From the NCBI GenBank assembly GCA_030704615.1, contig CM060731.1, forward strand, positions 23,498,001 through 23,562,000: a DNA stretch of 64,000 bases. The letters are read 5' to 3'. Positions 14,401 to 63,759 of the stretch are shown here, piece after piece. Position 1 is the stretch's first letter; every line of letters starts with the position of its first letter. The stretch is from Takakia lepidozioides (lineage: Eukaryota > Plantae > Bryophyta). The notes below the pieces were generated by a model, which saw only the letters and a program-made list of their open reading frames with translations, had not been told where the DNA came from and did not search any database. The translations under genes and the position numbers were made by a program.

Positions 14401-14754
14401 CTGCATCTCATGGCTGCATTTTTGGGAGTGCGTGTGGATGCTTGTGCCTTTCAGCTTTCTAAGCTGATTAGATCCTCATAATGGAAAGTGGCATTCTTGG
14501 CCATGGAAGGAACAGCGTGTGTTTCCGAGATTGAGCATACTTGTCTTGGCTGAGCTGGCATGTACTATGGATAGCTCTTCACCTCCATTAGATCCGATGA
14601 GGCTGAACCAACCAGGCCTCTGAAGCAACAGGAACTGAAGTGGTTCCTCAAAGACTTTTAACCTCCGCCTCCAGGACTTCTACCTGGCTTTGGGTTTCGG
14701 AGTCGCCATGAGACTTTATGCAATGTCCACGTCTTTCTCTCTCTCTCTCTCACA

Positions 14755-38473: not shown

Positions 38474-39198
38474 TGTCGCGGCCCTTTGCCTTGAGGGCAG
38501 GGGGTCACGACACAAGAGGGGCTGCCCCTGTGGTGGGGGCAATGGCAACAATAGGTATGGGGGCTGAAGCACCCTTGAGTGCCCAAGGCACTCAAGGAGG
38601 CGGAGGCGCTCACTAGGTGGAGCCCCGCACACCGGGTTGCGGTGGGGGTGGTTCCACGAGGGGTGGTGGTAGCTTCGTGGGTCTTAGTGGGGGTGGCATA
38701 GGACTCATCATGGGGCGGAGACCTTGTGATGGAAGTCGTGGGGAGTCTTGGGACTCATCACGGTCCAATGGAGCAGTGGTGGGTAGGCCAAGACTCACTG
38801 CGACTCATCACCGGGAATTGAGGGTCTTCGTGGTGGTTTGCCATAAAATGACTGGGTTGTTTGTGAAACCCCCACGAACAGTCACAGAAATATATATAGG
38901 GAGTAGTAACCCCGAGAACGGAGCAAGCCCGTTGGTGACCAAAAACTAGTGAGTAAACGTGCGAGCCAGAAAGCGACCAAGGTGTGGGGAGCTGTTCCGG
39001 ACTGCCAACGACCAAAGGGAATTTCCACTAGGCCCAAAATGAGAGAGGGTCTTGTGGAGAAGCAAAGGGGGACCATTATGTCCCGGTGAGCAGCCGAAGC
39101 TCCGAGTTGGCCCGACGGTCAGTTTGGGAGTTAGGCGCGCACATCAAAGCGAGTAATTATGACTTGAAGGGGAGCTTACCAAAGTGAGGTATGTAACA
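38474..39198 (+). repeat. 5' LTR (725 bp, TG...CA)
   Basis: Highly similar to 47041-47766 and to 46848-47040 plus 47772-48125. Confidence 0.92.
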
Positions 39199-39200
39199 CT

Positions 39201-39212
39201 TGGTATCAGAGC
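39201..39212 (+). promoter_or_regulatory. Primer binding site for tRNA-iMet
   Basis: TGGTATCAGAGC, 2 nt after the LTR end. Confidence 0.92.
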
Positions 39213-40390
39213 CTAGAGTTCAGTACGCGATTGTCCTTGAGATCGGCCTCATCATGGGGTCGGGCAAAACAAAGTGAAAGCGGAACGGCCCGAAAGATGA
39301 TGATCCTGGTGAGCCCGGGGGGGGGGGCGACGTGTCACCGAAGCGGCAATTGGAATAGGAGATTCATGCTTCTGAAAGCGAGGCCGCTCGAGAACGGGAG
39401 GAATTTTGGGAGTCAAAGCCCGAGGACTTCCCAGAGGCTCCGCCAAACCAACAGATGTCTCCCCTACCAGCAGCATTTTGGGAAGGGTTGTTGGCGCAGT
39501 TTGGTGGGACGTTGAAAGACGTGTTGAGGGCGGCTAATGACACTTCCACTAAGGCAAAGTTTAAGGTGAAGCCTAAGGAACCCGACACCTTCGAGGGCGT
39601 CCGAAATCGGAAAGCACTCAACACCTGGCTTTTGGAGCTAGAGTAGTACTTCCAGGCGGCCAAGTTGAGTGACGAGGATCGGGTGGAAGTGGCTCCCACC
39701 TATTTGAGGGGTTATGCTCAACAATGGTGGCAAAAACACCTTCATGACCAAGGTCCAAACCCAGAAACCTTGAGCTGGAGTGGGTTCAAGAGACTTATGA
39801 AAAGACAGTTTGTGCCCCTCAACGCGTTCTGGCTCGTCCGGGACAAGATGAGGAATTTGAAGCAAACGGATGACATTCGAGGATATGTTCTGGCTTTCAA
39901 TGTGCTATTGCTCGAAGTCGCGGATATGACAGAACCAGAAATGGTCTTCAACTTTGTGGCGGGACTGGCCCCATGGCCCAGGCGGATGTTGGAGGAGAAG
40001 CCACCTAAGACTTTAAACGAGGCAATTGAAAGGGCTGAATGTTTCTCGGATGTCCCTAGGGGCAAAAGACAAGGCCGTACGGAGCTGAACCACAAGAAGA
40101 TCCAGCGGGAGGGTGACTCATTCCGACCGGAAAAGAAGTGGGATAGGCCACACGGCGACAATGGCACATGGAAATTGAAGGGAGGGCCTTTACACGTCAA
40201 GGCGGCACTCGGTGCTCCGAAAAGAAAATCAGGTGCGGCGGCTTTTGGCGGACAGAAGACGATCTTCGATGGAGTGAGCTTTAATTGCGGGGAGCCCGGG
40301 CACATGGCCAAGGAGTTCGCAAAACTCGACAATTGAACATGACTCGGGCGACCGCGGAGCTGTCCGAAGATTCCATCAGCCGCTTGGTGG

Positions 40391-40988
40391 GAGGGCAGCA
40401 AAGCCGTGAGCAAAACCTGTGAGCAGATTCCTGGATGTGTGAGCAAATTCCCCGAAGCATGAGCAGATTCAAAGTGTGAGCAGATTTCTGATGCGGACCC
40501 CAAAACCGTGGGAATAAGTGGGCCTATTGCCGTGGACGCCAACTTCACTACAACGACGCAATCTCCGCTCCATCGGACCGAAGATAGAAAGGCTCCATGA
40601 CGACAAAGTGGCACGAATGCACGATGAAACATTCACGGAAGAATGGATTTGGGATGGACGTAAAAGTGAAATGGATGAACGTTGGATGAAGCACGGATGA
40701 AAAGTTGTCCAGATGAGGGGACTATGGACAACTGTATGAGCATGTCTCGTGAGGGATCAGCAAGCGCAGGGACCAGGCATTAAGATGTCGTCAACGACAT
40801 CTTAAATCGCATGCTCAGCATGAGAAATGAACCCATGAAAATCGTTGCAAAAAAAAAAAATCTTGCCTGGAAAAAACCATATGAGGGAGTTGTAATCCTG
40901 CTCAGGGAAGCACGAATTAAGATGTCGTCAACAACATCTTAATCCCCTGCCCTGTTTGGACATGGGAATTTCACCAAACAGGATAAAA

Positions 40989-41023
<35 letters not shown>

Positions 41024-43615
41024 CCCTAAAATGGAGAAAGGTTTGGGTTTACTTGAACAAAGTGGATCCATGAAGAGTGACTGGTCTCATTTGCAAGAGG
41101 GTAGCTACCGTGTGAGCAGTTCACGTGAGCATGCTCATGCTTTAAGTGGTAAACGTGAGTAGAATCCCTTAAGCGTGAGCAGATTGCAAACGTGAGCAGA
41201 TTAGTGAATGGGAGCCTACAACCGAGGGAAGAAGATGACCTATTGCCATGGACAAAAACATTGTACGGACACAATCTCCACCCCATCTGACGAAAGAATC
41301 CTTCATGGGTGACGACCATATGGTACGAATGTGTGATGAAAAGCTGCAGGTTGAATGGTTTTGAGATGAATGAAAAAATGAATGGATGAATGTTGGATGA
41401 CTTTTGGATGAAAAATGAGCGACATGATTGAACCATGGTGCGTGTGCAGGTGCTCGGGATTAAGGTGTCGTCAACGACATCTTAATTCCCAGTACGAGTT
41501 GGCACATGACAACTTACGGAAAAACCAAAATCCCTGAATTTTTTTTTCCAAAAATATTAACCAAAACAAATTTCAACCCAAAAAACTTTCAAGGCGAAGA
41601 AACCTTGGCGGTGTGTGTGCAAGTGGTGGGGATTAAGGTGTCGTCAACGACATCTTAATTCCCAGCAAGTTTATAAATTTTTATTTTTATTTTAAAAAAA
41701 CTGTTTTATTTTATTTTATTTATTTTCCCCCTGAATGTGCCAGTTTAAGGTGTCGTCAACGACATCTTAATTCCTAGTACGAGTTGGCACATGACAATTT
41801 ATGGAAAAACAAAAAAAACCCAAAAATAAATCACCCAAAAAATTTCAACCCAAAAAAATCTGATGGCGAACAGCCTTGGCGGTAAGACGGTGTGTGTGCA
41901 GGTGCTAGGGATTAAGGTGTCGTCAACGAAATCTTAATTCCCAGTACGAGTTGGCACATGACAATTCATGGAAAACCAAAAACCCCAAAAACTTTCATCC
42001 AAAAAATTTCAACCCACAAAAATCTGATGGCGAACAAGCCTTGGCGTTAAGGCGGTGTGTGTGCAGGTGCTGGGGATTAAGGTGTCGTCAACGACATCTT
42101 AATTCCCAGTACGAGTTGGCATATGACAATTCATGGAAAAATCAAAAACCCCAAAAAAATTCACCCGAAAAAATCTGATGGCGAACAAGCCTTGGCGGTA
42201 AGGCAGTGTGTGTGCAGGTGCTGGGGATTAAGGTGTCATCAACGACATCTTAATTCCCAGTACGTGTTTTGAAATGTTTATTTATAAAGCACGAGTTCAC
42301 CTCTTTGCCTTCTTTAGATTTGGGTATGAGCATTTCTCTCAACCTTGGATACCGTTTGATTCAAGGTGGCCTCAACTCTGCACCTTTGTCCCTACTTTCA
42401 ATTTCAATGTAGTCTTGTGTTGTTCTGTGTTGTGCCATTCTCTTGTTTGATTGCTATTTGAGAGATGGAATTAAGGTGTCGTTGACGATACCTTAAATCC
42501 ATGCCCTCTTGGGATGAGTTTGCCATGAATGAGGATCTTACATGGTCAGATTTTTTTGAAAGTTGCCAACATCAGTTATGGAGTCCTGCCTCTTAGTGCC
42601 TGGATTAAGATGTCGTTGACGACACCTTAATCCTGAGAGTGAATTGCTACCATTTTGGGATCTTTTGGGATGGAGTGGGACGAGCAGCTCTACTCTCAAG
42701 TCATCGCATCTCTGTCTGGGGGTTTATCGCATTCGACCCAGACCAAGAACATTGTCATGGAGCAGGATCTGCGAAAGCCCAATGCTCTGGATGTTGATTC
42801 CGATTTCTCATGTGAGTAAGTGCTAGTTCAGTTGTGGTACTTCACTGACACGACGGCACATCCTTCTATTTCCATCTTTCCTGCACAAGTTGGGCCAGCA
42901 GAATGTATGTGGACTTATATTGTTTGTGTGTGTGTACAGGAGCCCAATGTCGCCACGGTTCCTCCCTTTCTTTGCAAACCCGCAATTTTTCCCAAGTCCG
43001 AAAGCAGATTTTAAATTGTCATGTTATGCGGAGGCTGCAGCTTCGAAATTTAGTCTCATCTCTTCTCCCCCTGCTGTGCTTTTAAACAGAGAGGGTTTTG
43101 TGCAAAGCAGGGCTAGTGTCTTCATAGACAGTTCTGCCTTCATTTCGGACGCCGACTCCAGTAGCATAGAATATTCTTCGTCGGAATGAATCTGCAGTTT
43201 TTAAACTATTTAGTTTGAAGCACCAAATGGCCTCTCCACCTTCTTTGCAATTGTGTGTCAGCAACTATGTCGACTTCTGATACCTGATGAAAGGACAATC
43301 ATAACCCTCACCAGTGGGCAGAGGTTCACTCTAGAGCTAGGTGGATTTAGCAACCACTACTCAAAAATGCATCTTAGTTTTGCATTCATCCACAAACTAC
43401 ATTCATCCATGTGCCATTCGTCGAACATACATTCATCCCCCATTCATCCATCATTCATCCATAACGATGAATGACATATGCATGATATACTAGACACAAC
43501 CCGCAGTAGTAGGTCTTCTAGGCCGAATAGGTGTCCGCGGTTATAGGTGAGCACATTTAGAATCGTGAGCAGAATTCTGCTCACGGAATTTTCTGCTCAC
43601 GGTTTAGCAATCCCC
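40391..43615. mobile_element. Non-autonomous Mutator-like element (3.2 kb) inserted at the gag/pol junction
   Basis: 9-bp TSD GCTTGGTGG (40382-40390 / 43616-43624); imperfect TIRs GAGGGCAGCAAAGCCGTGAGCA / TGCTCACGGTTTAGCAATCCCC; removing the insert restores the reading ...SISRLVEAVVAK... Confidence 0.88.
40780..42630. repeat. Array of ten 26-bp palindromes TTAAGRTGTCGT-CA-ACGACATCTTAA, partly within ~150-170 bp tandem units
   Basis: Copies start at ~40780, 40917, 41460, 41633, 41745, 41912, 42077 and 42228, and (opposite orientation) 42471 and 42605. Confidence 0.92.
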
Positions 43616-46600
43616 GCTTGGTGGAGGCGGTAGTCGCCAAGACTTGCAAAATAGGCAACTACTCTTGTGAGTTGTATCAAGAGACTAGCCCCTTGTGTAA
43701 AGGGAGTCAGTTAATGTTCATGAGTGGGATAATTTCCGGAACTAACGTGTCGTTGTTGGTGGACACAGGAGCGTCGCACTCCTTCATGACACCGGCAACG
43801 GCACGGAATCTGGGGCTCCCGACAAGTGATGTGGAGGCCTCTATTGAAGTGCGTTATGCCAAAGGAGAACCACAACTAGCGACGAGGTTGGCGTTCGATG
43901 TTCATCTTCAGCTGGGGAGTTGGGAAGGACGTGATAACTTCACCATTTGCGAGATCGATGAAGTGGATCTCATTTTGGGGATGACCTTTTTGAGCAAATC
44001 CGGAGTGATCATAGATGGGCGCAAGAGAGTAGTCCCGCTACCGTGTGGGGATGGTGGCGAAGTTTTACGGGTGTCGAAAACGCCCAACCGAGTGGGAGGG
44101 CGAATAAACCTACTGACAGCAAAGGAGTGGGCCGTGGAGGAGCCACACGAACCCCAGGTTTTGCTTTACGTAAGACAAGTTTCCGGGTCACAAAAGTGGA
44201 GTTCCTAGGGCATATGATTACACAGGATGGGATCAAAATGGATGACAGAAATGTGAGGGCGATCTTGGACTGGGAGCCTCCGACTTTGGTCCCAGGAGTG
44301 CGATCCTTCCTAGGACTCGCCTCCTATTACCGAAAGTATGTGAGGAATTTCGCCAAGATCGCGGAGCCGCTATCAGACCTTCTGTGTAAGTCCAAGGTAT
44401 GGGTATGGAACATCTTTTGTGGCCAAGCTTTTGCCGAGTTGAAGCAGCGGATGGCGGAAGCTCCAGTCCTGAAAATCCTGGAGTTTGACCGTCCATTTGA
44501 GATTCATGCAGATGTGTCAGACTTCGCAATTGGGGGTGTGCTCATGCAGGATGGACGTCTAGTGACTTACGAAAGTAAAAAACAGAATGAAGTGGAGCGA
44601 CAGTGGCCTACGCACGAGAAAGAAATGAAGGCGGTGGTGCATTGCCTTAAGCTTTGGCGCCACTATGTTGGTTCCAACCCGGTGAAGGTGTTCACGGACA
44701 ATGTCACAGTGAAGTATTTTGTCACACAGCTTAAGTTGTCCCCAAAACAACTTAGGTGGCAAGACACTTTGGCAGTGTTCGACGTGGATATCCAGTACAA
44801 ACCGGTACGGGACAATGTGGTGGCCGATGCTTTCAGTAGAAAGCAGTAGCTCATGTTGGTGTACAGGGGCGAGACGGCGCTCCAAAGAAGATCCGGAAGG
44901 CTTACCGGAAGGATGAGATAGCGAAGTCCGTGATGCGAGACTTGAGGTTGGGGGTTAAATCGTATTTCCACTTGCACAATGGGCTGCTTCGGTACAAGCA
45001 AAAGTGTCTCTACGTGTCGAAGGGAGGGATCTGAGATAGTCTCTTGAGAGAATGCCATGATGGCCCGCTTGCGGGCCACGGCGGAGCCAAGCGCACCGCG
45101 GCACTATTGAAGAAAGAGTATTTCTGGCCCAAATTGAGGGAGGAGGCCGATGAGTATGTCAAGAAATGCATTACATGCCAACAAAACCGGAGCGAGTACA
45201 AAAAGCAAGCGGGGTTGTTATTCACTCTTCCCGTTTGGCCGTCCGTCGTAGGTCGGAAGGCGATGCTCATCTTGAGCCTCGTCCCCATTTTCTTCCAAAG
45301 TGCCCTCCAAAATTTATTTGTAAATTTTGGATCGCGGTCCGAGACAATATCCTTCGGAAGTCCATGATGCTTGAAGACGTGGGTGAAGTAAAGTCACTTC
45401 GTCTCCTGCACCGTTGCCGTCTCCTTGGTGGGAATAAAATGGCCCATTTTACTGAACCTATCCACCACCACCATGATTGCATTGAATCCTTTTGACAACG
45501 GCATAGCAGTCATGAAATCCATTGAGACACTTTCCCAAGACCTCTCTGGAATCGGCAAGGGAGTTCTGTTATAATAATACAAAACACTCCACAACGAGAG
45601 TTTCCCCTTTCGTATTGGTCTATGGAAAAGCACCTCTGGTGCCGACAAGTTGGGCCGCCCAGGACGTTGAGGAACCGGCAGCAAGCACCAGTACTTCAAA
45701 GATGAAGTGTGTCCGAATCGGCATCAAGTGTTGCGTCAACCACCTGTGCTGTTGGATCATGAAAATGAACCTGAGTACGAGGTGGAGGCAGTGCTTAAGT
45801 CGAGAAGGTTCAAGAATCGAGAAACGGAGTATCTCATGAAATGGAAGGGCTATCATTAAGTGGAGGCAACTTGGGTGCGTGCCTCAGAAATGGGAAACGC
45901 ATCCGAGGCGGTTGCAGCTTTCGAAGGGCGACCTCAAAAGCGGAAGAAGCGTTGATGGGGACATCAACCTTGGATTGTGGGGGAGAAAATGCATGCTTAG
46001 TCCGGCTTAGCTAGCTTAGGAATCCGATTGCAAAAACTTGTGTTGTACAAATTTTATTTATAAATGAAATGGTTTTTAAATGTTGTGCTTCCTATTTTGT
46101 TTGGAATGGTGATGCATGGCATGGTTAGCTGCATGCTAACTTACGAAATTGGGAGAGATAAATTGGATTAATCGTGTGTTTGTGCAGTGCCGAAATCGGA
46201 CGACTCCTATCCAAGGGGCAAGAAAACTTGCGTCTTCTTTGGGAATTCACGTGCTAGTGCGCACCTGGCGCGTGCGCGTACTATAATTGCGCTACCGAGG
46301 GGTTGTCTTGTAGTGCGGGCTAACGCGGAAGTTACGTGCTTCCGTTCACGTACTATAATCGTGTAACCTCGGGACGAAGTCGTAGTGCAGCTTCGGCATG
46401 TTCCCGTACCTCAGGCCAGCATTCCAAGGCGGACCCAATTGTAGTGATTGGGGTGCACAGTTGGTTCAAGGTTATCTTCCTAGTAAAAAAAAGGGTTCAA
46501 GGTGAACCCTTCTCAAGGTGATGCCAAAAAACGGCATCATGAGCAATATAAGCAATGTTATGCAATAAGGCGATTCGATCCTCGGGGAGGATCGTTCTTT

Positions 46601-47040
46601 GGCCTTGAAGTGGACCAAAAAAAGTGCACTGGGTGGAGCTGGAGAGGCTCCACCCTTGGCCGAGACTTGGAGGAAGTCGGCCAAACTAGCTAATGGAGAG
46701 TAGAGTCAAGTGGGGGTTTGGTTCTTTGCCATGGGACGCCATGGTACGGAAACAAACCCCTTGATGTGGGACGCCACAACTTGGATGTTAGTTTCTACAA
46801 AATGGACAAGTCGTTGAGGACATCGACTCCCTGTTGGTAGGGGTGTGTGTCGCAGCCCTTTGCCTTGAGGGCAGGGGGTCGCGACACAAGAGGGGCTGCC
46901 CCAGTGGTGGGGGCAGTGGCAACAATAGGTATGGGGGCTAAAGCACCCTTGAGTGCCCAAGGCACTCAAGGAGGCAGAGGCACTCACTAGGTGGAGCCCC
47001 ACACACCGGGTTGCGGTGGGGGTGGTTCCACGAGGGGTGG

Positions 47041-47766
47041 TGTCGCGGCCCTTTGCCTTGAGGGCAGGGGGTTGGGTCACAGAGGGGCTGCCCCTGTGGT
47101 GGGGGCGGTGGCAGCAATAGGTACGGGGGGGCTGAAGCAACCTCGAGTGCCCAAGGCACTCGAGGAGGCGGAGGCACTCACTAGGTGGAGCCTCGCACAC
47201 CGGGTTGCGGTGGGGGTGGCTCCACAAGGGGTGGTGGTAGCTTAGTGGGACTTAGTGGGGGTGGCATAGGACTCACCATGGGGGCGGAGACCTTGTGGTG
47301 GGAGTCGTGGGGAGTCTTGGGACTCATCACGGTCCACGGGGATCGTGGTGAGTGGGCCAAGACTCACCGTGACTCATCACCGGGAATCGAGGGTTTTCGT
47401 GGTGGTTCGCCATAAAATGGTGGTGTTGTTTGTGAAACCCCCGCGGACAGTCACAGAAGTATATATAGGGAGTAGTAACCCCGAGAACGGTGCAAGCCCG
47501 TTGGTGTCCAAAAACTAGTGAGTAAGCGTGCGAGCCGGAAAGCGACCAAGGTGTGGGGAGCTATTCCGGACTGCCATCGACCAAAGGGAATTTCCACTAG
47601 GCCCAAATTTGGAGAGGGTCTAGTGGAGGAGTAAAGGGGGACCGTTATGCCCCGGTGAGCAGCCGAAGCTCCGAATTGGCCCGGCGGCCAGTTTGGGAGT
47701 TAGGCGCGCGCATCAAGCGAGTAACTATGACTTGAAGGGGAGCTTACCGAAGTGAGGTGCGCGACA
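47041..47766 (+). mobile_element. Solo LTR of the same family nested in the 3' LTR
   Basis: Termini TGTCGC...GCGACA; 5-bp TSD GGTGG (47036-47040 / 47767-47771); removing it restores the LTR sequence. Confidence 0.92.
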
Positions 47767-49440
47767 GGTGGTGGTAGCTTAGTGGGTCTTAGTGGGGGTG
47801 GCATAGGGCTCATCATGGGGCGGAGACCTTGTGGTGGGAGTCGTGGGGAGTCTTGGGACTCATCATGGTCCAATGGGGCCGTGGTGGGTGGGCCAAGACT
47901 CACCGCGACTCATCATCGGGAATGGAGGGTCCTCGTGGTGGTTCGCCATAAACTGACTGGGTTGTTTGTGAAACCCCCGCGGACAGTCACAGAAGTATAT
48001 ATAGGGAGTAGTAACCTCGAGAACGGAGCAAGCCCGTTGGTGACCAAAAACTAGTGCGTAAGCGTCCGAGCCAGAAAGCGACCAAGGTGTGGGGAGCTGT
48101 AACTATGATTTGAAGGGGAGCTTACGCGTGCTCCTGGGCCAAGAGGAGCAGATATGGATTTTGATCCACAAAGGGGGGAAGCAAGGCGACAAATAAGGCT
48201 TCCACAGTCTTTCACATTGGCTGAGACAGTGCCAACTATGTCATCGATGGCACCCGCTCGCCCAAGTGTGTCAGAGGTAGAGCCACAAGTGCCATTGGGG
48301 AAAGTTGGTGTGGCTCGGGATATGCTAGTGGGTGGTGCTGCAAAGAAAGGTGCAGCCAGTACAATGTTGGGGGCGGCTACGGCAATTTGTCAAGCTCCAT
48401 TGTTTTCTGCCACGACAATTGCAATGCCGGGGATGCGGCCAGCTGCAGTATTTAGACTGGCAGCTGTACTCTATGAGAGTGGTAATGCATCGGCACTATC
48501 TGCGGGGATAGCAGATAAGGTGCAATGCATGAATGCCTTGGATTCAAGGGTGAAGACAGCCACAGCTGCACCATGGCAAGCGGCAGCTGCAAAGTTGCAG
48601 GAGTTGCCAGCTAGGCCAGCCATTGAGCGCAGTATGGTGACTCCTGGGGTAGTCCTAGTGGACAATCAGGATGGTATGTTTCAGTTAGGTGGCCCAGCCG
48701 GGAGGAGGTATAGGCCACTACGGGTCTTGTTGGACTCGGAAGCACAACCATTGATGTTGGAGAGAGCAGCAATTGCAGGCTTAGGCCTTACAGAGGCGGA
48801 TTTGGAGCCTTGCCCTTTCCAAATTCAAACATCTTTGGGTGGTTCAGAGAAGGCACGAGGGATTACACGCCATGAGCTCTTCATTCGATTGCAGCCAGAT
48901 CATCCTACGGATGACTCAGTCATGAGAGCTAAAGCCATTATTACGGACGCGATGTCCTATGATGTGCTTGTTGGTGGGGCGATGTTATACCCCAGGCAAT
49001 TCACTCTGGACTTTTGGGAGGAAATGGCATCATACAGGCCGGAATGGCAGTCAGGAGAGGGCCGACGTGCACTGCTTCTAGTGTGGTTTATTGGGAATGT
49101 GGCGGTGGATCATAGGAACATGATGCCCACATTGGCTGCATTTTCAAGGGTGGTGGCTTGGGGTGGTGAGCTCTTGGAGGGCAATAGCCATGCAAATGAT
49201 AGGCCATCACCTAATGAGGACAAACAATTGGCATACAAGGCTGATTTGCTTCCTCATGTGCCCGTGCATATTTCACTGTGGGGTACGGTTGGGAATTTGC
49301 ATCGAGTAGCAGGCGAGTGTGTGCACCAAGCATGGCAGGAGGCATTTCCATTGATGAGTGAGAGGAGTTCAATGACATCACCTGGACCTCCTGAGTTAGC
49401 TCTTTTGGACACAGTGCCCATTACCTGACAACCACCTGAC

Positions 49441-50420
49441 TCAGGGATTTGTTTGCTACTGTTTGGAGGCATGAGCACTGGGCTTGCAGGAGTGTTGCAA
49501 GCAGGGATTAAAGTACGCAAGTACTTGTATGTGGAGAAGGATGAGATAGCTCAGCGTATTTCTTTACCTCACATCACCTTGCTCACACACCAGTATCCTG
49601 AGTTGTTGCCTCTCTCAACAATTCAAGGATATCAAAAGGCCTTGCCAACAGACATTACCTTGCTGGGGGCGGATGATTTGGACCGGCATGGTTCCATTGA
49701 CTTGGTGATAGCCGGATGGCTTTGCCAAGGACACTCTCCCGCAGGTCATGGGCTTGCATGATGCACAATCGCATTTGTTTTGGGAGATGTTGCGAGTGTT
49801 GCGGGACTTGCAGACGAGGCAAATGCAACCTCTAGGCTATATCTTGGAAAATGTTCCTCTTATGGGGGATTCTCGGGCCAGGGTTATGGCCAGTGTGCAT
49901 CAAGTGCGGTCTTGGATTGGATCGGCGGTGCTATTGGATGCAGCAGCGGTGGGATCACGCGCGCATCGACCTCGATTGTGGTGGACCAATCTTGCACCAC
50001 CAGAGCTGTTCAAGAGAGCATACGATTCCATTCAACGGCCACCCAATCTCACGGTTGAAGGCATTTTGGACCAAGGGAGGCAACCACAAAGAGTGCGACA
50101 TGATGATCGTCCACCTCTAGCAGTGGTCAATCGAGTGGGGCAGCCATGTGCGGCCTTGCCTACGCTCATGAGCTTTCCCTCGTCTCATGCTTTCTGAGAC
50201 AATGGTCCTGGGTTGATCTGGGACAATGTGCTACAGCAATTGGTGGAGCCCAATGCGGATGAGCGAGAGCGGGCAATGGGATTTGTCACTGGCACTACAG
50301 ATGTGCCAGCTTTGTTAGAGGCATCACGCCGCCAAGTGTTGGGTCATGCAATGGATCTAAATTGATTGACATGGGTCATTGGCTTGTGCATGGCTGAGCA
50401 ATGGAGATTGCAAGCATTGA
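49441..50420 (+). pseudogene. Retrotransposon-borne DNA (cytosine-5) methyltransferase domain, DNMT3-like (frameshift ~49750, stop 50195)
   Basis: Motif I LLFGGMSTGL; II YVEKD; III DIT; IV DLVIAGWLCQGHS; VI YILENV; VIII DAAAVGSRAHRPRLWWTNL; IX ERERAMGF..GTTD; X RRQVLGHAM. Confidence 0.9.
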
Positions 50421-53400
50421 TGACTACTTCTGCACTCCCATTAGATAGTGCATCCTCCCTGCCAACCGGGACGGTTGAAGCAGTGAGTGGGGGCGAGCAC
50501 ATGATCGTGGGTTGCAAACACCCATGGCAGATGTGGGATGAGATGCGCAAAGAGAGAGTCATTGGATCTCTCAAGTAGGGAGTGGGGAGAGCCATGGACT
50601 GAGGATCAGTTGGAGGCCAAGGTGGTCAAGGTTTTTAAAGAGGTTGAGAATGTTTATTGCTAAGAGGATGTTCTCAAGGTGGCTATGACGAAGCAAGTGG
50701 AGGCTACGCCATAGTCAGATTGGGCGGACAAGGCCCAAGAGGTTGTTATCTAGCAACCAAAGGATTCGTCTCCTACCTCCAAGCCTGGTGTACCCAAAGT
50801 TGCAGTCACTGAGGACAATTGGGAACCAGATGTTGGACCTACAGTCACCGGAGGAGAGAGACGGAGGATCCGGTGATTTCTATGGGCTTATAGAAATTGC
50901 TTTGCCTTCGGTTTGAAGGATTTGGGGAGTTTGAAGGGTCAGGAGATTTGTATTGATTTGGCAAGTGACACGCCAATCTTTCGAAGGCCCTACCAGTATA
51001 GTGACATGGAGAGGTCAGTGATCCAGTCACGGACTATGGAGTTATTTGAAGCTGGATTGGTGGAGTTGTCAGGCGGGGAGTATGCCTCGGCAACGGTGAT
51101 GCTAGCTAAGAAGGATTTCTATGGCAATTGGACAGAAAGAAGGATGTGTGGGGACTATCGTCCTGTGAACCGTCAGACTAAGTCCGACAGATATGCCATG
51201 CCAACTCTTGAGGAGATCTTTGATGCCATTGGGCATGCAAAGGTGTTTAGCACATTGGATTTGCGATCCGGTTATCACCAATTGCCAATCAAAGAGGCTG
51301 ACAAGCAAGAGACGGCATTTTGGGGGATTGACCAACATAGGAAGGATTGTTTGTACCAATGGCGGTTCTTACCGTTTGGGTTGAAGAATGCTCCTGCAGA
51401 GTTTCAGAGAGTCATGGATAGGATTCTCGCGGGGCTAGACTTCGTCCGGTGCTACATTGATGACATCCTCATCTTTAGTGCTACGGTTGAGGAGCATGAG
51501 AGACACCTTCAGGTGGTGTTTGAGCGCTTGAGAGCGCACGGGTTGAAACTGCACCTCGGAAAGTGCAAGTTCTTCCACGATCAGATTGAGTATCTGGGCC
51601 ACATGATATACCCTGGAGGATTGGGTGTTCAACAGACAAAGGTGGAGGCCATTGCATGCATTCCACGCCCCATGGATGTGAGCAGAGTTCGTGTTTTCAT
51701 GGGATTGGCAAACTACTATCGACGGTTTGTCAAGGGATTTAGCAGCATTGTAAAGGCTCTTACCAAGTTGACCAAGGTGGGTCAGGAGTGGCAATGGGAG
51801 GAGGAGCAGGAGGAAGCCTTTGAGGAACTCAAGGCTTGATTGACTTCTGCACCTATTCTGAGGCGGCCTATTCGGGGGTGGCATTTCCAGCTACATACGG
51901 ATTGGAGTATGCTGGGGATTGGAGCAATGCTCACACAAGTGGATGATGAGGGAAGAGAGTTCGTAGTGGCATATGCTAACCGCTCGAACAATGATGCCGA
52001 GACGAAGTATAGTTCCTATGAAGGGGAGTGTCTAGCTGCGGTATGGGCAGTGGCACATTTCAGATGCTACCTCTGGCAATCTCTTCACCCTTGTCACGAA
52101 TTACCAACCATTGAAGTGGTTGATGGAGTCAGACAAGCTTACAGGGAAGCTTGCACGGTGGGCACTTATGCTTCAAGAGTACGACTTCCAGGTGGTGCAT
52201 CGAGCCAGTATTGTCAATCGGGATGTAGTTGGATTGAGTCGTAATCCATGCACGAGCGAACATGATGATACTGGAGCTCAGTGGCATGGTGAGACGGATG
52301 AGGAGATGGTGCCAAGATGGCATGCATCGGCCTTTTTGTGCATTCTAGCAATGGGAGCTCAAGCTGGTTCATTCCATGCGATTGGTCATGTAGATAGCGT
52401 GCATGACGATCCAGAGACTAGTGAGGAGTTTGGTGGTGCTAAGGATGTGCATGAAGATGTAACAGTGTTGGCATACCTTCGTATCGGAGAGGTAACAACT
52501 AGTGTGACTGCTAAGGAGAGAGATTGGGTCCTACAACGAGCCAAGAGGTTCAAGTGGGAGGGGACTCACCTACTCCGGGTATGGGAGGATGGACGAGTGA
52601 GGATTGTGCCTCATCCAACACAACGAGCGCGATTGGTACGCCATGCCCATGAGGAGTTGGGACATTTTGGGGTGTGGCGCACTCATAGTTTGCTGCAAAG
52701 GCAGTATTGGTGGCGGGGCATGCATCCGGATGTGCAACAGTTAGTGGCAGGGTGCGTGGTGTGTGATAGAGTGTGGGCTTCTTTCAATGCCCCTATTCCA
52801 CAATTGCATCCTTTATCCATTATGGGTTTGGGCTATCGTTGGAGTCTTGACTTCGCAGTCCCATTAACACTGATGATTCGCCATAACAAGTATGTGCTGG
52901 TGATGGTGGAACACTTCTCCAAATGGATTGAATTGGTGGCATTGCCTGACAAGGCAAGTGAGGGGGCTGCGTATGCATTCTTAGATCGAGTGCTTAGCCA
53001 ATTTGGTGCTCCAGCCGAGGTACTCACGGACCAGGGGAGAGAGTTCTTGGGGGAGTTTCAGGCTTTGTGTGAGCAAGCCTTGATAGATCACCGCACTACT
53101 TCTCGGGATCATCCCGAGGCTGATGGCTTGGCGGAGAGAGTTGTTCAGACAGTCAAGAGAGGTTTGCGCAAGTACGGTTTGCAGAAGGGATACCTAGGAG
53201 ATTGAGACCTTCAGCTGCCTTGGCTAGCTATGGGCTATAGGTTCAGCAAACAAGCTTCACTTGCCGCCTTCTCACCTTATTTTCTTCTCTTCGGCCGAGA
53301 GCCGGATTTGCCTGCATCTATTCGCAGGGAGGCTGCAGTAGTTCTCAACCTTGATGATCCGGATGTGTAGACACAAGCATGTGCCCAGCGGGCAGAGTTG

Positions 53401-54151
53401 CTCAAGAGAGTCATGCCTATGGCTTTTGAGAACCTTGCTATTGCCCAACACCGAGACACATTGAGGTATGTCACTATACGTGGAGGGGGATATCGGCCAA
53501 GTGTTCGGCGTTTCCACCCTAAGGACTATGTGTATCTGCAGCAGACAACGCCTACGACCTTGGATGTCACAGCAGGATGTGTGATTCTAAGGGTCAGGGA
53601 GGTGTTGCCTTCAGGAGTGTTAATTCTGGAGGGTCGAGATGGCATGGTATGGAAGGACCATGTGCGCAATTGTGCGCCATGTCACCTTCCACATGTGGAT
53701 GAGATGATAGATCCCAACCTTTCAGTGGCACCTGCAGGGTTGCGTTGCATGCTATGTGGGCATTCTGGTGGCACCGCAACCATGTTGGTGTGTGACAAAT
53801 GCTCAAGGGGGTGGCACATGAGATACTTGACACCGCCACTTGAGGAGGTTCCTATCGGAGAATGGTTGTGTCCACGATGCCTTGGACAGAGGTAGTGGGC
53901 ATGACAATGGTGAGGCGGACAAGTGATCCAAGGGCTAGCTAGTGGGGCTTCAATGCCATGGATACTCAACTGAAGATCATGATTGCATGAAGGCGACTAA
54001 CGATGGGGCTACGTTTGCACCCGGCCTCTTGATCTATCAACTTCGGGTGTTGGGACTTGTGCAATTGAAGACCAAGCGATGATCTTATTGGGGTGGATAC
54101 TTGCAAGCTATTCGGTGTTAGAGGGACCTAATCACCAGCTAGGGGGGCGAT

Positions 54152-54674
54152 TGTGGCGTGGCTTTCTAGGACTATATGCTAGGAAGTGTGGTTGGATAGC
54201 GATGTATGTGGTGGCACGATGCTTAGGTGCACGACAGCTGTCATGGTTTTGTTTGTGATTAGTTAGAAATAGTTATTTCTAGCTAATTAGGACATTATAC
54301 ATTTATATTTGTATTTTGTTGGCATTGGGACTTCATTTGGTTCCATGTACCAAGTGAGGTGGCGAACCTCATTTGGGACGTGGAGATGTTATCTCCACGT
54401 GAGACGTAGGCAGGCTCGTCTTCTTCTAGTCGAGCCTCCCGAGGCCTCTCTCGCTGCCATAGCTCTAGTACTTGAGATGGAGAGTGGGTGAGGTATGTAT
54501 GGTGGAGTCCTTTAGCAAAGGTGCCATTGGCTTGACTTATATAACGTGATAGAGTGGTTTATCCTCTTTTCACCATTTCCGTATCATTGTGGCGTGGCTT
54601 TCTAGGACTATATGCTAGGAAGTGTGGTTGGACATCGATGTATGTGGTGGCACGATGCTTAGGTGCACGCCACA
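54152..54674 (+). repeat. 3' LTR of the methyltransferase-carrying element (523 bp) with an internal terminal direct repeat
   Basis: Follows the PPT; 9-bp inverted termini TGTGGCGTG...CACGCCACA; 54152-54236 is repeated at 54588-54674. Confidence 0.85.
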
Positions 54675-54884
54675 TGTGAGAAGGCATGTCCAACACTCTC
54701 GCAAAGATTCGAAGCAATCAAAATTCATTTGAACAGTTCACGATGGGTTCACCCTTTCAATATTTGCTTCACCTGATACTTGAGAGGACTTGTGACAAGA
54801 TATGTCCAACACACTCGCAAAGAATGAAAGCAATAAAAATTCATTTGAACAGCGATCGTTGAGTTCACGCTTTCAATCAATTTC

Positions 54885-56110
54885 TACGCGGTCGCCAGTG
54901 GGGCCTCGGGACCGCCCGGCTCCCGGTCCCTATTGCTTTTTTATTTTTCCATTTTTTTTGTACCCCTGCGGCTACTGTTGTGGCGGTCGCCGGTTGGGGG
55001 GTCGGGACCGCAAGACTTTCTTAAAATTTGTTTACCCATTCAGCGGTCCCTTTTATTTAGGTTTTTAATAATAATAATAATAATAATAATAAAATTTTAA
55101 ACCCAGGAGGCGTTCGCTGTGGCGGTCGCTTATTGGGGGCTCGGGACCGCGAGACTGGCGGTCCACACTTTAAAAAAAAAAAAGTGTTTCCACTTGGTTT
55201 TTTACCCATAAGGCGACCGCTTCGGCAGTCGGCAATTGGGGGCTCAGGACCGCTAGATTGGCGGTCCCCACCTTTTTCGTATTTGTTTCCACTTGTTTTT
55301 GTACCCATGAGGTGATCGCCTCGGCGGTCGCCGATGAGGGGCTCGGGACCGCCAGACTGGCGGTCCCCACCTTTTCTTTTTGTTTCTTTTTGTTTTTGTA
55401 CCCATGAGGCGACCACTGCGGCGGTCGCCGTTTGGGGGCTCGGGACCGCCAGACTGGAGGTTCCAATGTCGCTCTTGGCCGTGTGTGTGTGGGGGGGGGG
55501 GGGGGGGGGGGGGTGGTGGGGGCCGGGTGCTGCTAAGCGACCGCTAAAGTGGCGGTCGCCACCATCTCCACGTCACCCAGCACACAGGCGGCTGCCGCTG
55601 TGGCGGTCGCCATAATCGCCACGTCACCCACCCTGCCCAACCACCCTGCCACCCACCGCCCAGCCACCCTGCCCAGCCATCCTGCCACCCATCGCCCAAC
55701 CACCCACCCTTCCACGTGCTCGTATTGCAGCCGCGGCCCGTCAGGCGACCGCACGTGGCGGTCGCCCTGTTCTCCCTCCCTGCGACGGCACGTGGCGGTC
55801 GTTCTCTTCTCCCGCCTGCGACCTGCACGTGGCGGTTGTCCCGCCCGCCCCTCCGGGCACCCCCTGCTGCCTGACCGCCACCTCACCAGAGGCGACTTGC
55901 GCTTGAGGATGCCCTGCCGCCACCTCATAGGAGGCGACCGCCATGGTGGCGGTCGCCGAGATCGCCACCACGTCCGGCAGAGTGGCGACCGCCACTGAGG
56001 CGGGCGCTTGCCTCGCCACCTCACCCGGCTCAGGGGCGACCGACGCCAACTCACTGGCTCCGAGGTGACCGCATGACGTCATACTTGCCACCTCCTTGGG
56101 CACGCCGGCA
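54885..56110. repeat. GC-rich palindromic repeat region (GGCGGTCGCC / GGCGACCGCC / GGGACCGC), probably DNA-transposon subterminal repeats
   Basis: About five ~115-bp units at 54940-55470 (TTGTACCC...GCGGTCGCC...GGGGCTCGGGACCGC), a G run at 55491-55513 and many further motif copies to 56110. Confidence 0.75.
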
Positions 56111-58640: not shown

Positions 58641-59019
58641 GAAAAAATATAAAATGGAAAGCACAAAGATTATAAACAGCACGGAAGAGTTGATGAAGCC
58701 ATACCTTAATTTGTAGACCAAGAACTTCATAGGAGAGAGGAGCCTAGGGCGGCCTGTGGTCGGCCCTTGAGGTTGACGGTAAGTCGGCTCTTCATTGCTT
58801 GGCAGAAGATACTGGTCTAGGTAGTATCACAGGAGCAATCACGTCGCTCCATAATGCCTCAAGCCTGACCATGCTTCATAACTAGGATTGGAATGGAATC
58901 GACAACATTCATGGCCTACAAAGTGATGTTGAAACCGTTGTCCTACCCCACTGCCCCAGTCGCATACACATTACACTGCTGCATTGAAGTTAACAGGAAT
59001 TATGGCTTGTGGCATGTTT

Positions 59020-62000
59020 CTACTTCCTCGTACTTGCTTCCTCCACCTCTCCCTTCCACTGCTACCTTCATCCTTCCTAGCAGCGCCTTCTTCACAGGAT
59101 TCTCTCCCCGTTCTAATCTACCAGAAACGTTGCACTCTCCAGTTTGGTGCCTCTCTCTTCCGCTTTCGCATTCCCTATCTAGTTCGTATTCTAACCAAAC
59201 TGCAACTGTGGTTGCCATGTCTTCTCGGGGAGAGCCCAGCAAAAGGGGTAGAAGGGGCGGCTCATCCTTTGGAAGCAGAGGCAAAGGTCGAGGATGGGCT
59301 AAGAAAGCAACTCCAGCTGATGGCAATGTCGCCTCCATTCTGGGGAAGGGTCCCTCGTCAAGGCCTCCCCCTCAATCCCCAATTACTTCCGAGCAGGGCT
59401 GGGACGACACAACGATACCGATTGACGCTGCACAACCAGTCATTGCGTTAAACAAAGAGAAGATGATGGCTCAAGCCCAAAAGCTGACCAAATAGGGTAT
59501 ATTGTTATACTTTCCTGGCAAGATGAGGCCTAGGGAATCGATTCGCAGATGGGTTGCTGAGCATCTTGGAGCGGATGGAGGCTTATCCCACCAGTTCAGT
59601 ATCACCATGGGAAAGGGATTTTATGCCGTCATTTTCTGCTCAGTGAAAGAGGCAGAAAAGGCCTCAATTTTAACACAAGGAATTCCTTAGTGAAGGTCCA
59701 CATCTTCCCATGGGTGCAGGACTGGGGGCATAAGGAGGGGGTCACCTGGAAGCCCCGAGTAATTGCAATCCCCTTCCTGCCCCCAACTTATCTCTCCTCG
59801 CTGCCAGAAATTGGTGCCAGTTTTGGCACTTACATTGGAGCCATCAGAGTGGAGGACCTAATCCTCAGCGTTGACAACGAAGCTGTCCACTTGGATTATA
59901 GCAAAGACAATGGAGTCCCCAAGCCAGTGGTCCTCATGCCGGAATCTGCAAACATTGGGTCATCAATCAAATTACCCACCTTGGATGACTCACTCATTGT
60001 GGTTGCAATTAGAGAAGATATACATGCGATTATTTGCTTTGAGTGCAATGGTGAGGGCCATGTTAAGGCGGACTGCCCACAGGCCAAAAGGAAACCATTG
60101 ATGGATAAGCAAACTGGAGACTCTGATTCCTCAAAGCCGGCACCGTTGTCCACCTCAGAAACAGTGGCAGTTGTGCCTCTGCAAGTCTCCTCAAAGGGGA
60201 AGGAGAAAACTGGGGAGGACCTGCAGCAATGGAAAGTAACCAAAAAGAGAAGAAGAAATGAGGACCTCACAGTCTGGAATCATCCACCACAGGCAAGTGG
60301 CTCAAGCCCAGCCAAAGAGGCCATGGCATGGGCAACCTTTCCTTTCACTAAGCAACATTTGCAGGAGCTGGACAGCTCCAGCTTGGCGGTGGCTTTCTTG
60401 GAACTCCACTCCTTTACTACTCTACCACTTAATGGCTGGACACCAGGCTCGGACTATGCTAGAGACTCAGCAGCAATTTGCATTACACCCCTGTTCTTCA
60501 CATTCATGGACGGGCTCACCAACTTCTGCCTTTCAAGCAAGCTAGAAGGATTCAAATTCACTTGGATCTCGGAGGAATCTGGCAACCAAATTCGATGTTG
60601 GGAAGGAGACGGACCTCATGCTCAAGGTCTCGTAGGACATTCTGGAATATTTCTTCCCAAATCTGGTGCCCACTCAGCCAAATATCGAAGAAGTCGGCGT
60701 TATGGTGGAAAACAGTCCACCATAACCCTGACCTCGCAATAATTCATGTTCTGCATGTCATCTCTAGCTACTACCTCAATCTAATTGGGGGGAAGAACAA
60801 TTGGGTTTGGGTCTCCAAAAACGGGCTAGGCTAGGTACCTGACCCCCCATCTGGGGCAAGAAATGCAATGATCCTACAAGAAGGCGTGAAAATGGTGGAG
60901 GAAATGCTCAACAAACAAAAAAGGAAGACGGCGACAGAGGCCAGGCCTGTGCAGGAACAGCCCCCGCGTCTTCAAGAGATGGGGGCTCATATGGCAGCAC
61001 CGGAGCTATCCATCACTCTCATGATTCAGGAGGAGATTGTCGACTCCCCACCAGTGGTAGGCATGCACCCTTGTGCCTACTCTCCCCCTTCCCCAACTTC
61101 TTTCTCAATGTTGTGCAAGTTGCCCCTACTGGTTCTGCTGATGGCCACCTCACCCACTGAAGTGGAGAACAAATTCTTGCCTCACCATAGATTTGTTGCA
61201 AGCCTCAATCACCTTGCTGGTTGCTAGGTCATAGGCAGACAGGGCAGGTAGAGGCTACAGTGCATTCAAAGGTTACAGTGCTTCCCCAGAAAAGGCCATC
61301 AATCATGATTGATCATGGGCCTCCAGCCCACCCCCTCATGAACTTCTCCTTGTATAGCTGGAATGTCCGGGGACTGGGGTCAGATCACTCAGCCCCCAAA
61401 AGGACAAGAATCAGATCTTGGGCGGCCAATCTGCTCTCTCGAAACTCCATAGTTTTCCTGCAGGAGCACAAATTGTCCCAGAGTAAGATAAGCTTCATTA
61501 GGACAATCCTTTTGGCCTTTTGTCAATGCCCTCTGGAACCCCACGATTGCTGACTCTAGGGGGGGAACAGCCACTCTAATCTCCCCCGCATTGGCCCCAT
61601 CGGAGGAAATCTGGATCCAAGGCCGTGCACAAAGCCTCTTTCTCTCAGGCAGTCATGTCATAGGAACAGTTGGCATAATTAACATTTATGCCCCTAACCA
61701 AGAGAAAGAAAGAGCTGTTTTCTGGAATCAGATCAGGGAAAAGATCCTCCTATATCCGGCTGTTCAGCACTGGATCTTAGGAGGGGACTTCAATATCCAT
61801 CTGACCATTTGGGCCCTAACAACCACACGATCTCACAGCAGAAAAGAAACGCGTGGGAAATGCTATGTATGTCAGTGGGGCTGCTAGATGCAACCCAGCC
61901 TCTGAACAACGAACTGCTATTCTCATGGACAAACAACAGGAACCTCCAGACCTCTATCAGGCAAGGTTAGACCGGTTCTATTGTACGACAAACCTGCTTA

Positions 62001-63759
62001 CCTGGTCCAAAAGAGTCCCCTTGAGGCCTATCCTTCCTGGGTTTGACCATGCCACCATTGAGCTCTCCATCCTGCCACCAGGCTCCAGGATCAAAGGTAG
62101 GGGTTTCTTCAAACTCAACCCTAGCATTCTTAAGGACACCGAGCTGGTTCAATCTCTGTCGAATGCATGGGCAGCCTCCAGACCTCCCTTCTCCTCTCCT
62201 ACCCTCATCTTCCTCTGCAAATTCCAAGAAGCTAGGCAATCTTGTCAGGTGCTCTCTCGGAAAAAAACGGAGGATTCCGCTCGAAAGGAGAAAGCTCTGA
62301 CTAAGTGCCTGCATGTCTGTCAATATCAAATTCAGGCAGGTAGAATAGGCGACAAACCCTCATGTCTTACAAAACAGCCAAGCACAATCTTGCAGCCTTC
62401 TTACATGCCAGAGAGCAGAATTTCAGGATGAAGGCAGGAGTCAACTGGCCTCTTGGGGGAGAAAAGATGACCAAGTACTTTTTTATAAAAGCTAAGCAAA
62501 GGAGAGCCGCAAACCTCGTGTCTTACCTGAAAGATGACAATGGCACAGTACGCTCTGACCCGCAGAAAATGGCAGACATAGCAGCGGATTTTTTCAAAAG
62601 TTTGTTTGAAAAATGCGGGTCTTCTGTGCGCTCAGATGCAGCCATCATTGATGCCACCCCCTGCTTGCTCTCAAACCAGGAAAAGCTGTACCTCTGTGCC
62701 CCTTTTACAGAGGATGAACTGGGGCTGGCGGTTACGGTCCTTGCCCCCAATGAAGGCACTTGGGCTAGATGGAATGCCAATGGAGTTCTTTAAAACACTC
62801 TGGCAAACCATAGCCCCAGATTTCCTGGCTATGGCAAACGACATTCTGGACAAGGGCATTATGCCTTCTCAAATTTCTCATCACTTTGATTTTCAAGAAA
62901 GGTAATAGGGACAATATAGCAAATTATCGTCCAATAACCATGTTGAATTCCATATACAAAATCATTGCGAAAGCGCTTGCCATCAGGATCCAACCTCTGT
63001 TTTCTAAAGTTATAAGGAGAGACCAGACAGGGTTCTTGAAGGACAGAATGATATTGGACAATATCATCCTCACCCAAGAGGCCCTTCACAGAGCTACCCT
63101 CTCCAATCAGCCGCTGGCCCTGCTGAGGTTGGACTTCGAGAAAGCCTTCGACTCCATAGACTGGTCCTTTTTGCTTCAAGTTTTGGACAAGGCTGGTTTC
63201 CAGGGATCATTCCTCAAATGGATTAAAATCCTTCTATCCTCGGCCTCAAGCAAGGTCATGGTCAACGACATAATCTCAACAGAGTTCTCTCTATCTCGAT
63301 CAGTCAGGCAGGGGTGCCCGCTGACACCCTTCCTTTTTCTCATTATAGCCGATAGCCTTGGTCATTTATTGGAATCCAAGCAGGATGTCATAGGCCTCCA
63401 CTTGCCGTGTCCAGTAATGGACAGCACCAACATGGTCAAAGTTTCTATGTATGCCGATGACACGACGTTGCTACTGGATAACTCCAATAGAGCCAACATT
63501 GACAGAGTGTTGAATGCACTGCAAACCTTTTGCTTGGGATCTGGGCTGCAAATTAACTGGAAGAAATCAGTGGGTATGCTCTCCTCCTCCACCCCAATAC
63601 TACTACATGCCACTATACCCCTTGGGGACAAGAACTAGACCTCAAGTGGCTGGCTGATGGAGAATCGCACACTCTCCTGGGGCACCAAGTAGGCCACAAT
63701 CTGACTGATGAATAGAGGTTTGCAAAAGTGCTCCAAAACTTGAAAATGAAGTTGGCATT
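59020..63759 (+). mobile_element. Second L1/Tx1-like LINE (diverged relative of 22160-30532), inactivated, interrupted after the RT
   Basis: ORF1 from 59217 with LYFPGK..HLGA..GKGFY and CFECNGEGHVKADC; endonuclease SWNVRGL..FLQEHK..NIYAPN..GDFN; RT SVRQGCPLTPFLF..YADD; the 5' boundary is approximate. Confidence 0.92.

Follow-up and report, generated by a model that had tools for sequence, protein, structure and literature searches.

A decayed Ty3/gypsy retrotransposon of Takakia lepidozioides and its relatives: a DNMT3-type methyltransferase ahead of a conserved, probably leaky stop codon

Why retrotransposons retain a silencing enzyme has been a question since 2018, and the hosts known to carry such elements are awkward to study. 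The question is raised by a locus of Takakia lepidozioides (Bryophyta), lying in a stretch of 64,000 nucleotides of contig CM060731.1 (assembly GCA_030704615.1, positions 23,498,001 to 23,562,000 of the forward strand; hereafter the window), in which an original prediction made from the letters alone had placed a DNMT3-type C5 cytosine methyltransferase (MTase) between the protease and the reverse transcriptase (RT) of a decayed Ty3/gypsy element. According to the analysis described here, the locus is a dead member of an old bryophyte family of Ty3/gypsy elements that is present in many copies and related to KnitGypsy-Dnmt3 of algae, and the MTase of this family would be packaged with the capsid and would probably methylate the cDNA of the element; taken as a whole, this explanation has in our judgement slightly better than an even chance.

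Anatomy of the element and nature of its methyltransferase

The features of the element, in the coordinates of the window, are as follows.

48127..49425, plus strand: C-terminal spacer of Gag, aspartic protease (LLDSEAQ, D at 48733) and a second spacer, with 5' gag and the 5' repeat A lost; 47% identity over residues 449-983 of the Marchantia protein P0010
49447..50368, plus strand: DNMT3-type C5 cytosine MTase, motifs in canonical order; frame change at ~49745-49760, stops at 50195 and 50363, and a stop ahead of it at 49426
50751..50759, plus strand: conserved in-frame stop in the context TAG CAA CCA, of tobacco mosaic virus (TMV) type, 43 codons ahead of RT, likely leaky; 47/50 copies
50765..50865, plus strand: long RNA stem predicted 3' of the stop by minimum-energy folds (a lead only)
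50880..52182, plus strand: RT and RNase H, with a stop at 51837 and a frame change near 52075 (PF00078, E=5.7e-34; PF17919, E=3.3e-23)
52615..53745, plus strand: DDE integrase, consisting of H2C2 finger, rve core and C-terminal part, with stops at 53203 and 53368 (PF17921, E=8e-16; PF00665, E=3e-14)
53746..53880, plus strand: PHD finger at the integrase C terminus (PF00628, E=3.1e-9)
54140..54149, plus strand: polypurine tract, the same motif standing ahead of repeat B in relatives
54152..54236, plus strand: repeat B1, 85 bp, 96.5% identical to B2, ending in a palindromic junction (GACA-GC-TGTC) with A2
54239..54587, plus strand: repeat A2, the 3' copy of the missing 5' repeat A; begins TGTCATG like A of the relatives, where A is also the 5' end
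54588..54672, plus strand: repeat B2, the right end of the element, at 54672 by alignment to B1 or at 54674 if a 9-bp inverted match to the start of B is taken

A six-frame reading recovered the predicted motifs in place: motif I (LFGGMSTG) at about 49459-49482, motif IV (GWLCQG) at 49714-49731 and, after the frame change, ENV, RAHRPRLWWTNL, ERERAMGF and RRQVLG, followed by RT, RNase H and integrase as matched by Pfam. The TGA at 49426-49428 is in frame with motif I, linking the protease side to the MTase as had been supposed. The MTase was rightly taken as part of the polyprotein and not as a passenger gene, although it does not lie inside the RT open reading frame (ORF); instead it terminates the Gag-protease-MTase ORF ahead of the conserved stop at 50751. 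The copy is dead, as predicted: it has in-frame stops at 49426, 50195, 50363, 50661, 50712, 50874, 51837, 53203 and 53368, frame changes near 49750, 50577 and 52075, altered residues in the protease, motif I, motif IV and the PHD finger (one zinc ligand), and its 5' end is lost against a partial long terminal repeat (LTR) of a neighbouring gypsy element. It is not devoid of gag, as had been stated, since the C-terminal spacer of Gag is present from 48127 and aligns to P0010 from residue 449; the remaining gag and the 5' repeat are indeed absent, and no further copy of gag or of repeat A was found elsewhere in the 64-kb window. The protease of the relatives gives Asp_protease_2 matches below the Pfam cut-off.

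The Pfam family PF00145 matches the MTase of the window only weakly (E=0.062, 13.2 bits against a cut-off of 22, on the piece 49751-50194), and window pieces read with X gave no match; taken by itself, the window withstands only weakly the HMM refutation set in the original prediction. On the other hand, 10 of the 11 relatives scanned pass at 35-49 bits. The window piece finds DNMT3A in the PDB (E=3.4e-6) and is 70% identical to the relative P0004, for which the PDB sequence search returns DNMT3A as the best match, then DNMT3B, DRM and bacterial enzymes. The structure model of P0004 (pLDDT 89.6) matches DNMT3A in Foldseek (E=6e-18), and in VIA-align DNMT3B (Z 27.7, rmsd 2.7, 279 residues aligned) and DNMT3A (Z 27.1, rmsd 2.6, 273 aligned) stand above M.MpeI (Z 24.8) and HhaI (Z 21.9). 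Sequence matches and modelled fold agree with the predicted DNMT3 type. A DRM methyltransferase was considered and rejected, because the motifs run unpermuted from I to X and the P0004 model fits DNMT3B over 279 residues and DRM2 over 133.

Across an alignment of 50 relatives, neither the catalytic Cys-Gln nor the glutamate of ENV varies. The ratio of nonsynonymous to synonymous substitutions in the MTase is 0.115, 0.113 and 0.158 in the three unsaturated pairs of relatives; the other two of the five pairs include the window and are saturated, so that the estimate rests on the relatives. By these values the MTase appears to be under purifying selection in the family. Many relatives among P0145-P0292 have GWECQ instead of GWPCQ as motif IV, and of the 134 top representatives with a recognised motif IV, 45 carry P ahead of its cysteine.

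The PHD finger, overlooked in the original prediction, was found by Pfam. In the relative L051 it is closest to the PHD fingers of CHD4, PHF12 and PHF21A, and the domain resembles those of the chromatin readers CHD4, PHF21A, UHRF1 and AIRE. The PHD fingers of these four proteins read unmethylated histone H3 tails, like the ADD domain of DNMT3.

Distribution and relationships of the family

The original prediction had itself named a one-off insertion as a finding that would overturn it; the domain is instead kept at the same position in proteins of Marchantia, Calypogeia and Sphagnum and in metagenome loci. With the MTase piece as query, 58 related proteins were obtained among 847 candidates, including many gene models of Marchantia polymorpha and proteins of Calypogeia fissa and Sphagnum, the proteins of the three genera being 60-70% identical. 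Eighty metagenome loci with the MTase were fetched, most of them ordered gag-protease-MTase-RT-RNase H-integrase-PHD, and in 49 of these 80 the end of the MTase and the start of RT are at most 700 nt apart; the loci were fetched with the MTase as query, by which sister elements lacking it would escape. The MTase profile finds 491 clusters, formed at 50% identity, at E<=1e-30.

Trees built from the MTase and from the RT of 22 elements agree in their groupings. The RT tree of this set was a quick one containing two long, unreliable outgroup rows (one of them partly out of frame), and it was redone under LG+G4. In the resulting 33-row tree the window groups with L030, Calypogeia, Marchantia and one moss-type locus (support 100/98), within a larger, internally poorly ordered RT group of 20 rows (81/96) that takes in MTase elements of Closterium and P0339, a partial RT of Klebsormidium from a predicted protein without MTase. 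MTase and RT are contained together in each of the predicted Closterium (Zygnematophyceae) proteins P0344, P0352 and P0218, by which the family is extended to the algal sisters of land plants.

A second architecture, RT-RNase H-MTase-integrase-PHD (type II), is found in P0077, P0080, P0081, P0084, P0087, P0090-P0092 and L076:1065-5647. It forms its own clade in both trees, into which a Haematococcus RT falls, and no other multi-domain form is as frequent in the top 150 representatives, where 36 are complete. In the sequencing run X1 (organism A), 41,494 of 3,038,600 contigs match 47800-55000 at at least 80%, with all bins covered, and contig depth summed across the MTase comes to 82,000-236,000, whereas the individual contigs listed have 54-78. 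The summed depth is not a copy number, and the interval includes part of the LTR of the neighbouring element; it fits a very large family. P0303, a transcriptome-derived RT-RNase H-integrase-PHD protein with 68% identity in RT, means that a relative is transcribed in some organism; contigs of run X8, which may be RNA, were kept out of the evidence for expression. Among viral contigs, 21 pattern matches were obtained, none of them related to the element.

Collectively, these comparisons identify the MTase as a trait of an old family spread across liverworts, mosses and streptophyte algae, and not as a rarity of one locus. The relatives in Marchantia polymorpha bring the question of the silencing enzyme into a genetic model with methylation mutants; copies of the element also inflate the counts of DNMT3 in bryophyte gene models.

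Stop codon, split repeats and a proposed route of replication

Well-kept relatives have a single frame, Gag-protease-MTase-stop-RT-RNase H-integrase-PHD. In 47 of 50 copies (the 49 loci and the window; L034, L058 and L079 are the exceptions) an in-frame stop followed by CA stands 37-44 codons ahead of RT, and bryophyte-type predicted proteins end 70-150 residues beyond the MTase. In L051 this stop is the sole one in 2,400 codons before the terminal stop. It is followed by CAA CCA in the window and L030, CAA CTA in L072 and L074, CAA TCA in L050 and L078, and CAG TTA in L051 and L052, so that UAG-CAR-YYA is present in the window and in all seven non-moss loci that retain the stop, in addition to one moss-type TAA-CAA-CCA. 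The second codon after the stop thus takes the forms CCA, CTA, TCA and TTA, all four YYA codons for three amino acids, which indicates that the bases are kept rather than the residue. CARYYA would follow any one stop by chance with a probability of 0.0013. For organism A, the contigs have no listed variant of at least 15% at 50751-50759 (depth 120,000-131,000), whereas about 95% of the depth departs from the window at the stop codon of 50712. UAG-CAR-YYA is the readthrough consensus of TMV (PMC3159437) and gave 32% readthrough in one plant reporter, according to the available text of PMC2754532. The conserved UAG is therefore likely to be leaky and to be read through, as judged from its context. 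Of nine minimum-energy folds, eight contain a predicted RNA stem 3' of the stop (z -0.5 to -4.4); covariation is mixed, the two registers tested being different, one of them without excess covariation and the other mirroring the split into two clades, and the stem is a lead only.

What had been described as a plain 3' LTR at 54152-54674 is actually a split repeat, B-A-B, made of B1, two bases, A2 and B2. The complete layout A-coding-polypurine tract-B-A-B is seen in L032 and L073, and five further loci are A-coding-B; the B-A-B half is present in the window, L061 and L069. A and B both have TG..CA ends. The target duplication of 4 bp is perfect in six of the seven loci with both ends, and matches at 3 of 4 bases in the seventh; the target sites (TCTC, AATC, TACA, TGTT, TGTG) have no CG preference. 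The junction of B and A is a palindrome, GACA-nn-TGTC, in the window (nn = GC), L010, L032, L061 and L050, L051 having GT as nn, and the bases ahead of B2 are those ahead of B1, which is primed from the polypurine tract. From junction and layout we infer the outcome expected from a two-LTR circle, with B+A as the LTR, opened between B and A. The combination of permuted repeats and clean duplications of 4 bp points to integration by the integrase via circles, which are a dead end in textbook LTR replication. Origin of the A-coding-B form from one-LTR circles was considered and rejected: the flanks of L023 (A-coding-B) match those of L060/L061 (B-A-B end) at 93-96%, and the short form can therefore arise later by B-B recombination or assembly collapse. 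Elements of this layout evade LTR finders that expect two equal LTRs.

No tRNA primer site follows A in the relatives, nor any TGG-type site. The bases after A are complementary to a stretch of A over 10-17 nt in 8 of 18 moss-type rows; four rows reach 11 nt, two of those being the same insertion. In L051 the complementarity is 16 nt, in a sequence unrelated to the moss-type one. Among 1000 random 20-mers, none reached 11 nt in either control. The better matches mostly lie about 30 nt below a TATA-like motif, from which the transcription start was deduced. This complementarity resembles the self-priming of Tf1.

These observations can be joined into a route of replication that we favour, by a narrow measure of confidence, over the rest taken together: the MTase would be made with Gag and protease ahead of the leaky UAG, packaged at the level of a capsid protein, and would CG-methylate the cDNA of the element before integration. 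A minority of ribosomes would pass UAG-CAR-YYA and so produce RT and integrase, in the manner of the TMV replicase and the gag-pol of murine leukaemia virus (MuLV), and the protease would release the MTase within the particle. Reverse transcription may self-prime as in Tf1, by pairing of the RNA 5' end in A with the sequence just after A, and the cDNA would then carry B+A at both ends. Its ends may be joined, and the DDE integrase might cut the palindromic CA-nn-TG junction of B and A inside the LTR, which would yield the A-coding-B-A-B layout and 4-bp duplication observed in relatives. The PHD finger may read histone H3 tails and steer integration. The methylated cDNA would enter the genome already marked, whereby expression may be tempered or host surveillance evaded. 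The conserved stop would fix both the timing and the amount of enzyme production, and so points to the particle as the place where the MTase acts. A wider proposal, that a distinct green-plant lineage from streptophyte algae to liverworts and mosses combines a Gag-level DNMT3 made through TMV-type readthrough, self-priming and integrase acting on circular cDNA to leave pre-methylated permuted copies, is offered only tentatively and may well prove wrong.

Several observations weigh against methylation of the cDNA inside the particle and its presumed route. The CpG observed/expected ratio of the window element is 0.53-0.56, against 0.34-0.39 in host pentatricopeptide repeat (PPR) genes, 0.36 in a long interspersed nuclear element (LINE) and 0.78-0.82 in the neighbouring gypsy; the element is thus not specially CpG-poor, and CpG content gives no support to self-methylation. 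The KnitGypsy-Dnmt3 domain gave no methylation in yeast, a result called inconclusive by its authors in the available text (PMC5890265). Thirty-eight of the 47 stops, all of moss type and from partly redundant assemblies, are followed by CAA-CCC/CTC/CCT and not by strict CARYYA, most of them with an ATG six bases on. The window stop at 49426, where the relatives are open, also has a CAA-CCA context, and the motif matches three times in any frame over 6.6 kb, so that it does arise by chance in the element. The deeper relatives P0074 and P0076 and the proteins of Closterium have no stop between MTase and RT, and the large second type places the MTase between RNase H and integrase; hence Gag-level expression is not required by all. 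As for replication, five of the seven complete loci are A-coding-B only, and the 5' end of the window copy, hence its priming site, is missing, so that the reading of priming rests on relatives.

With the same anatomy, the MTase might act on host DNA near the integration site, or in trans on chromatin, under the guidance of the PHD finger. The likeness of this finger to chromatin readers and the position of the MTase next to integrase in type II elements are in favour of such a target, which we nevertheless consider unlikely, because the PHD finger here is on the integrase beyond the stop, the MTase would be cut free, and the target sites lack CG preference. The stop might also be crossed by termination-reinitiation or splicing instead of readthrough, the MTase still being made with Gag. 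Moss-type copies, with a conserved ATG-G six bases past the stop and a weaker context, would suit reinitiation; the window, L030, L072, L050-L052 and L078 lack such an ATG while keeping CAR-YYA, and both ORFs are in frame at a fixed spacing, which makes this alternative quite improbable.

It is also doubtful, to a high degree, that the domain is kept for a non-catalytic role, such as nucleic-acid binding in the particle or a decoy for silencing factors, or for RNA methylation. Such a role would accord with the lack of observed activity of KnitGypsy-Dnmt3 in yeast and with the minority of top representatives having P before the motif IV cysteine, but not with the invariant Cys-Gln and ENV glutamate, nor with the de novo CG methylation by SymbioDIRS-Dnmt3 domains, as given in the available text of PMC5890265. 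That a fragment of a host DNMT3 was captured just once, at this locus, or that the assembly is chimeric here, is hardly conceivable: apart from the weak PF00145 score of the window alone, which would suit such a reading, three bryophyte genera known by name and 49 loci have the domain in an identical place, the trees are congruent, and host-species contigs cover the whole MTase, one of them bridging the spacer between protease and MTase. Methylation of the element's own cDNA in the particle is the reading that we prefer.

As for the surroundings of the element, an ordinary gypsy without MTase occupies 38470-48125, with LTR copies from 38470 and about 47037, gag, protease and RNase H, and a TGGTATCAGAGC primer site near 39201; a partial extra copy of its LTR (47767-48125) lies directly against the truncated MTase element. 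Of two intronless PPR genes of the PLS class, at 9565-11589 (minus strand) and 19242-21698 (plus strand), one has an E motif at its end and the other DYW; further PPR remnants lie near 1-550. Decayed LINE elements are found at 14662-16435, 22767-29877 and 58869-63638, and part of a B3 domain lies at 6309-6989. Repeats of 100-170 bp form arrays at 40766-42636 and 54956-55472, the first holding the palindromic unit TTAAGGTGTCGTCAACGACATCTTAA.

Comparison with known systems

There are some reports of related elements, considered here from the available parts of their texts. In bryophytes, no report of such elements was found in the literature, nor one of readthrough or of a route combining integrase and split repeats, although supplements, subscription papers and Repbase may hold copies. 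Term look-ups found no mention in PMC9985172, PMC5784723 (text and supplement, with six Mapoly ids), PMC7466625, PMC12885004, PMC10952607, 10.1101/363937 and PMC8616336, as far as these were accessible. Bryophyte copies may lie in the supplementary DNMT trees of PMC12344493 and of a 2026 preprint. Later papers speak of 'streptophytes', citing or referring to de Mendoza et al. (2018), and a Marchantia methylome paper lists five DNA methyltransferases, with element MTases not among them in the part available.

Non-chromovirus gypsy elements of non-seed plants in REXdb, Phygy and Selgy, also have a 4-bp duplication, and Phygy is of similar size (8.6 kb); they differ in that Phygy has NCGN sites and a tRNA-Trp primer-binding site, Selgy has a tRNA-Ala one and is 5 kb, and neither is listed with an extra domain in the available text (PMC6317226). 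Assignment to Phygy was rejected, as the NCGN duplication, a target that would have suited a CG methylase, occurs in 0 of 7 complete relatives and no tRNA-Trp site follows A in the relatives; Selgy was set aside too. Troyka of animals (CG..CG termini, 3-bp duplication; PMC12440569) was likewise rejected for a family with TG..CA ends and 4 bp, and by the same paper Troyka does not have split repeats. DIRS/PAT elements were set aside because rve integrase and target duplications stand in place of a tyrosine recombinase.

Tf1/Sushi and Tcn1 similarly have no tRNA primer site, and their sequence after the 5' repeat complements the presumed RNA 5' end; they are chromoviruses with ordinary LTRs, unlike the element here (PMC6317226). 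In TMV (PMC3159437; PMC2754532), as in MuLV and Tca2, a leaky stop context splits the structural from the enzymatic ORF, whereas here the putatively leaky stop comes after protease and MTase, in a plant retrotransposon. EpiLTR and DAM-LTR elements of Cymbomonas and Euglena are LTR elements that also join a DNA methyltransferase to a chromatin reader, in their case DAM and DNMT4-like domains with a chromodomain (10.64898/2026.05.21.726589). SymbioDIRS-Dnmt3 of dinoflagellates, for which de novo CG methylation was shown in yeast, shares the DNMT3 domain in the retrotransposon polyprotein and the split direct repeats, and has a tyrosine recombinase in contrast to the DDE integrase here (PMC5890265).

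The closest precedent, a charophyte alga as the original prediction had indicated, is KnitGypsy-Dnmt3 of Klebsormidium nitens, described as a gypsy element with DIRS-like repeats (de Mendoza et al., 2018; PMC5890265). By the available text, it shares the gypsy order protease-RT-RNase H-integrase with a DDE integrase, an intronless, non-permuted DNMT3-type domain under purifying selection and DIRS-like A-coding-B-A-B repeats. The host here, unlike that of KnitGypsy-Dnmt3, is a land plant, and the MTase is in frame with RT yet separated from it by a conserved stop of leaky type, ending the Gag-protease ORF. A term search of that paper's text found no mention of the PHD finger, self-priming, the palindromic junction or Marchantia. 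The type of element is thus already published from Klebsormidium, and the readings of readthrough, self-priming and circle permutation are the new and testable part.

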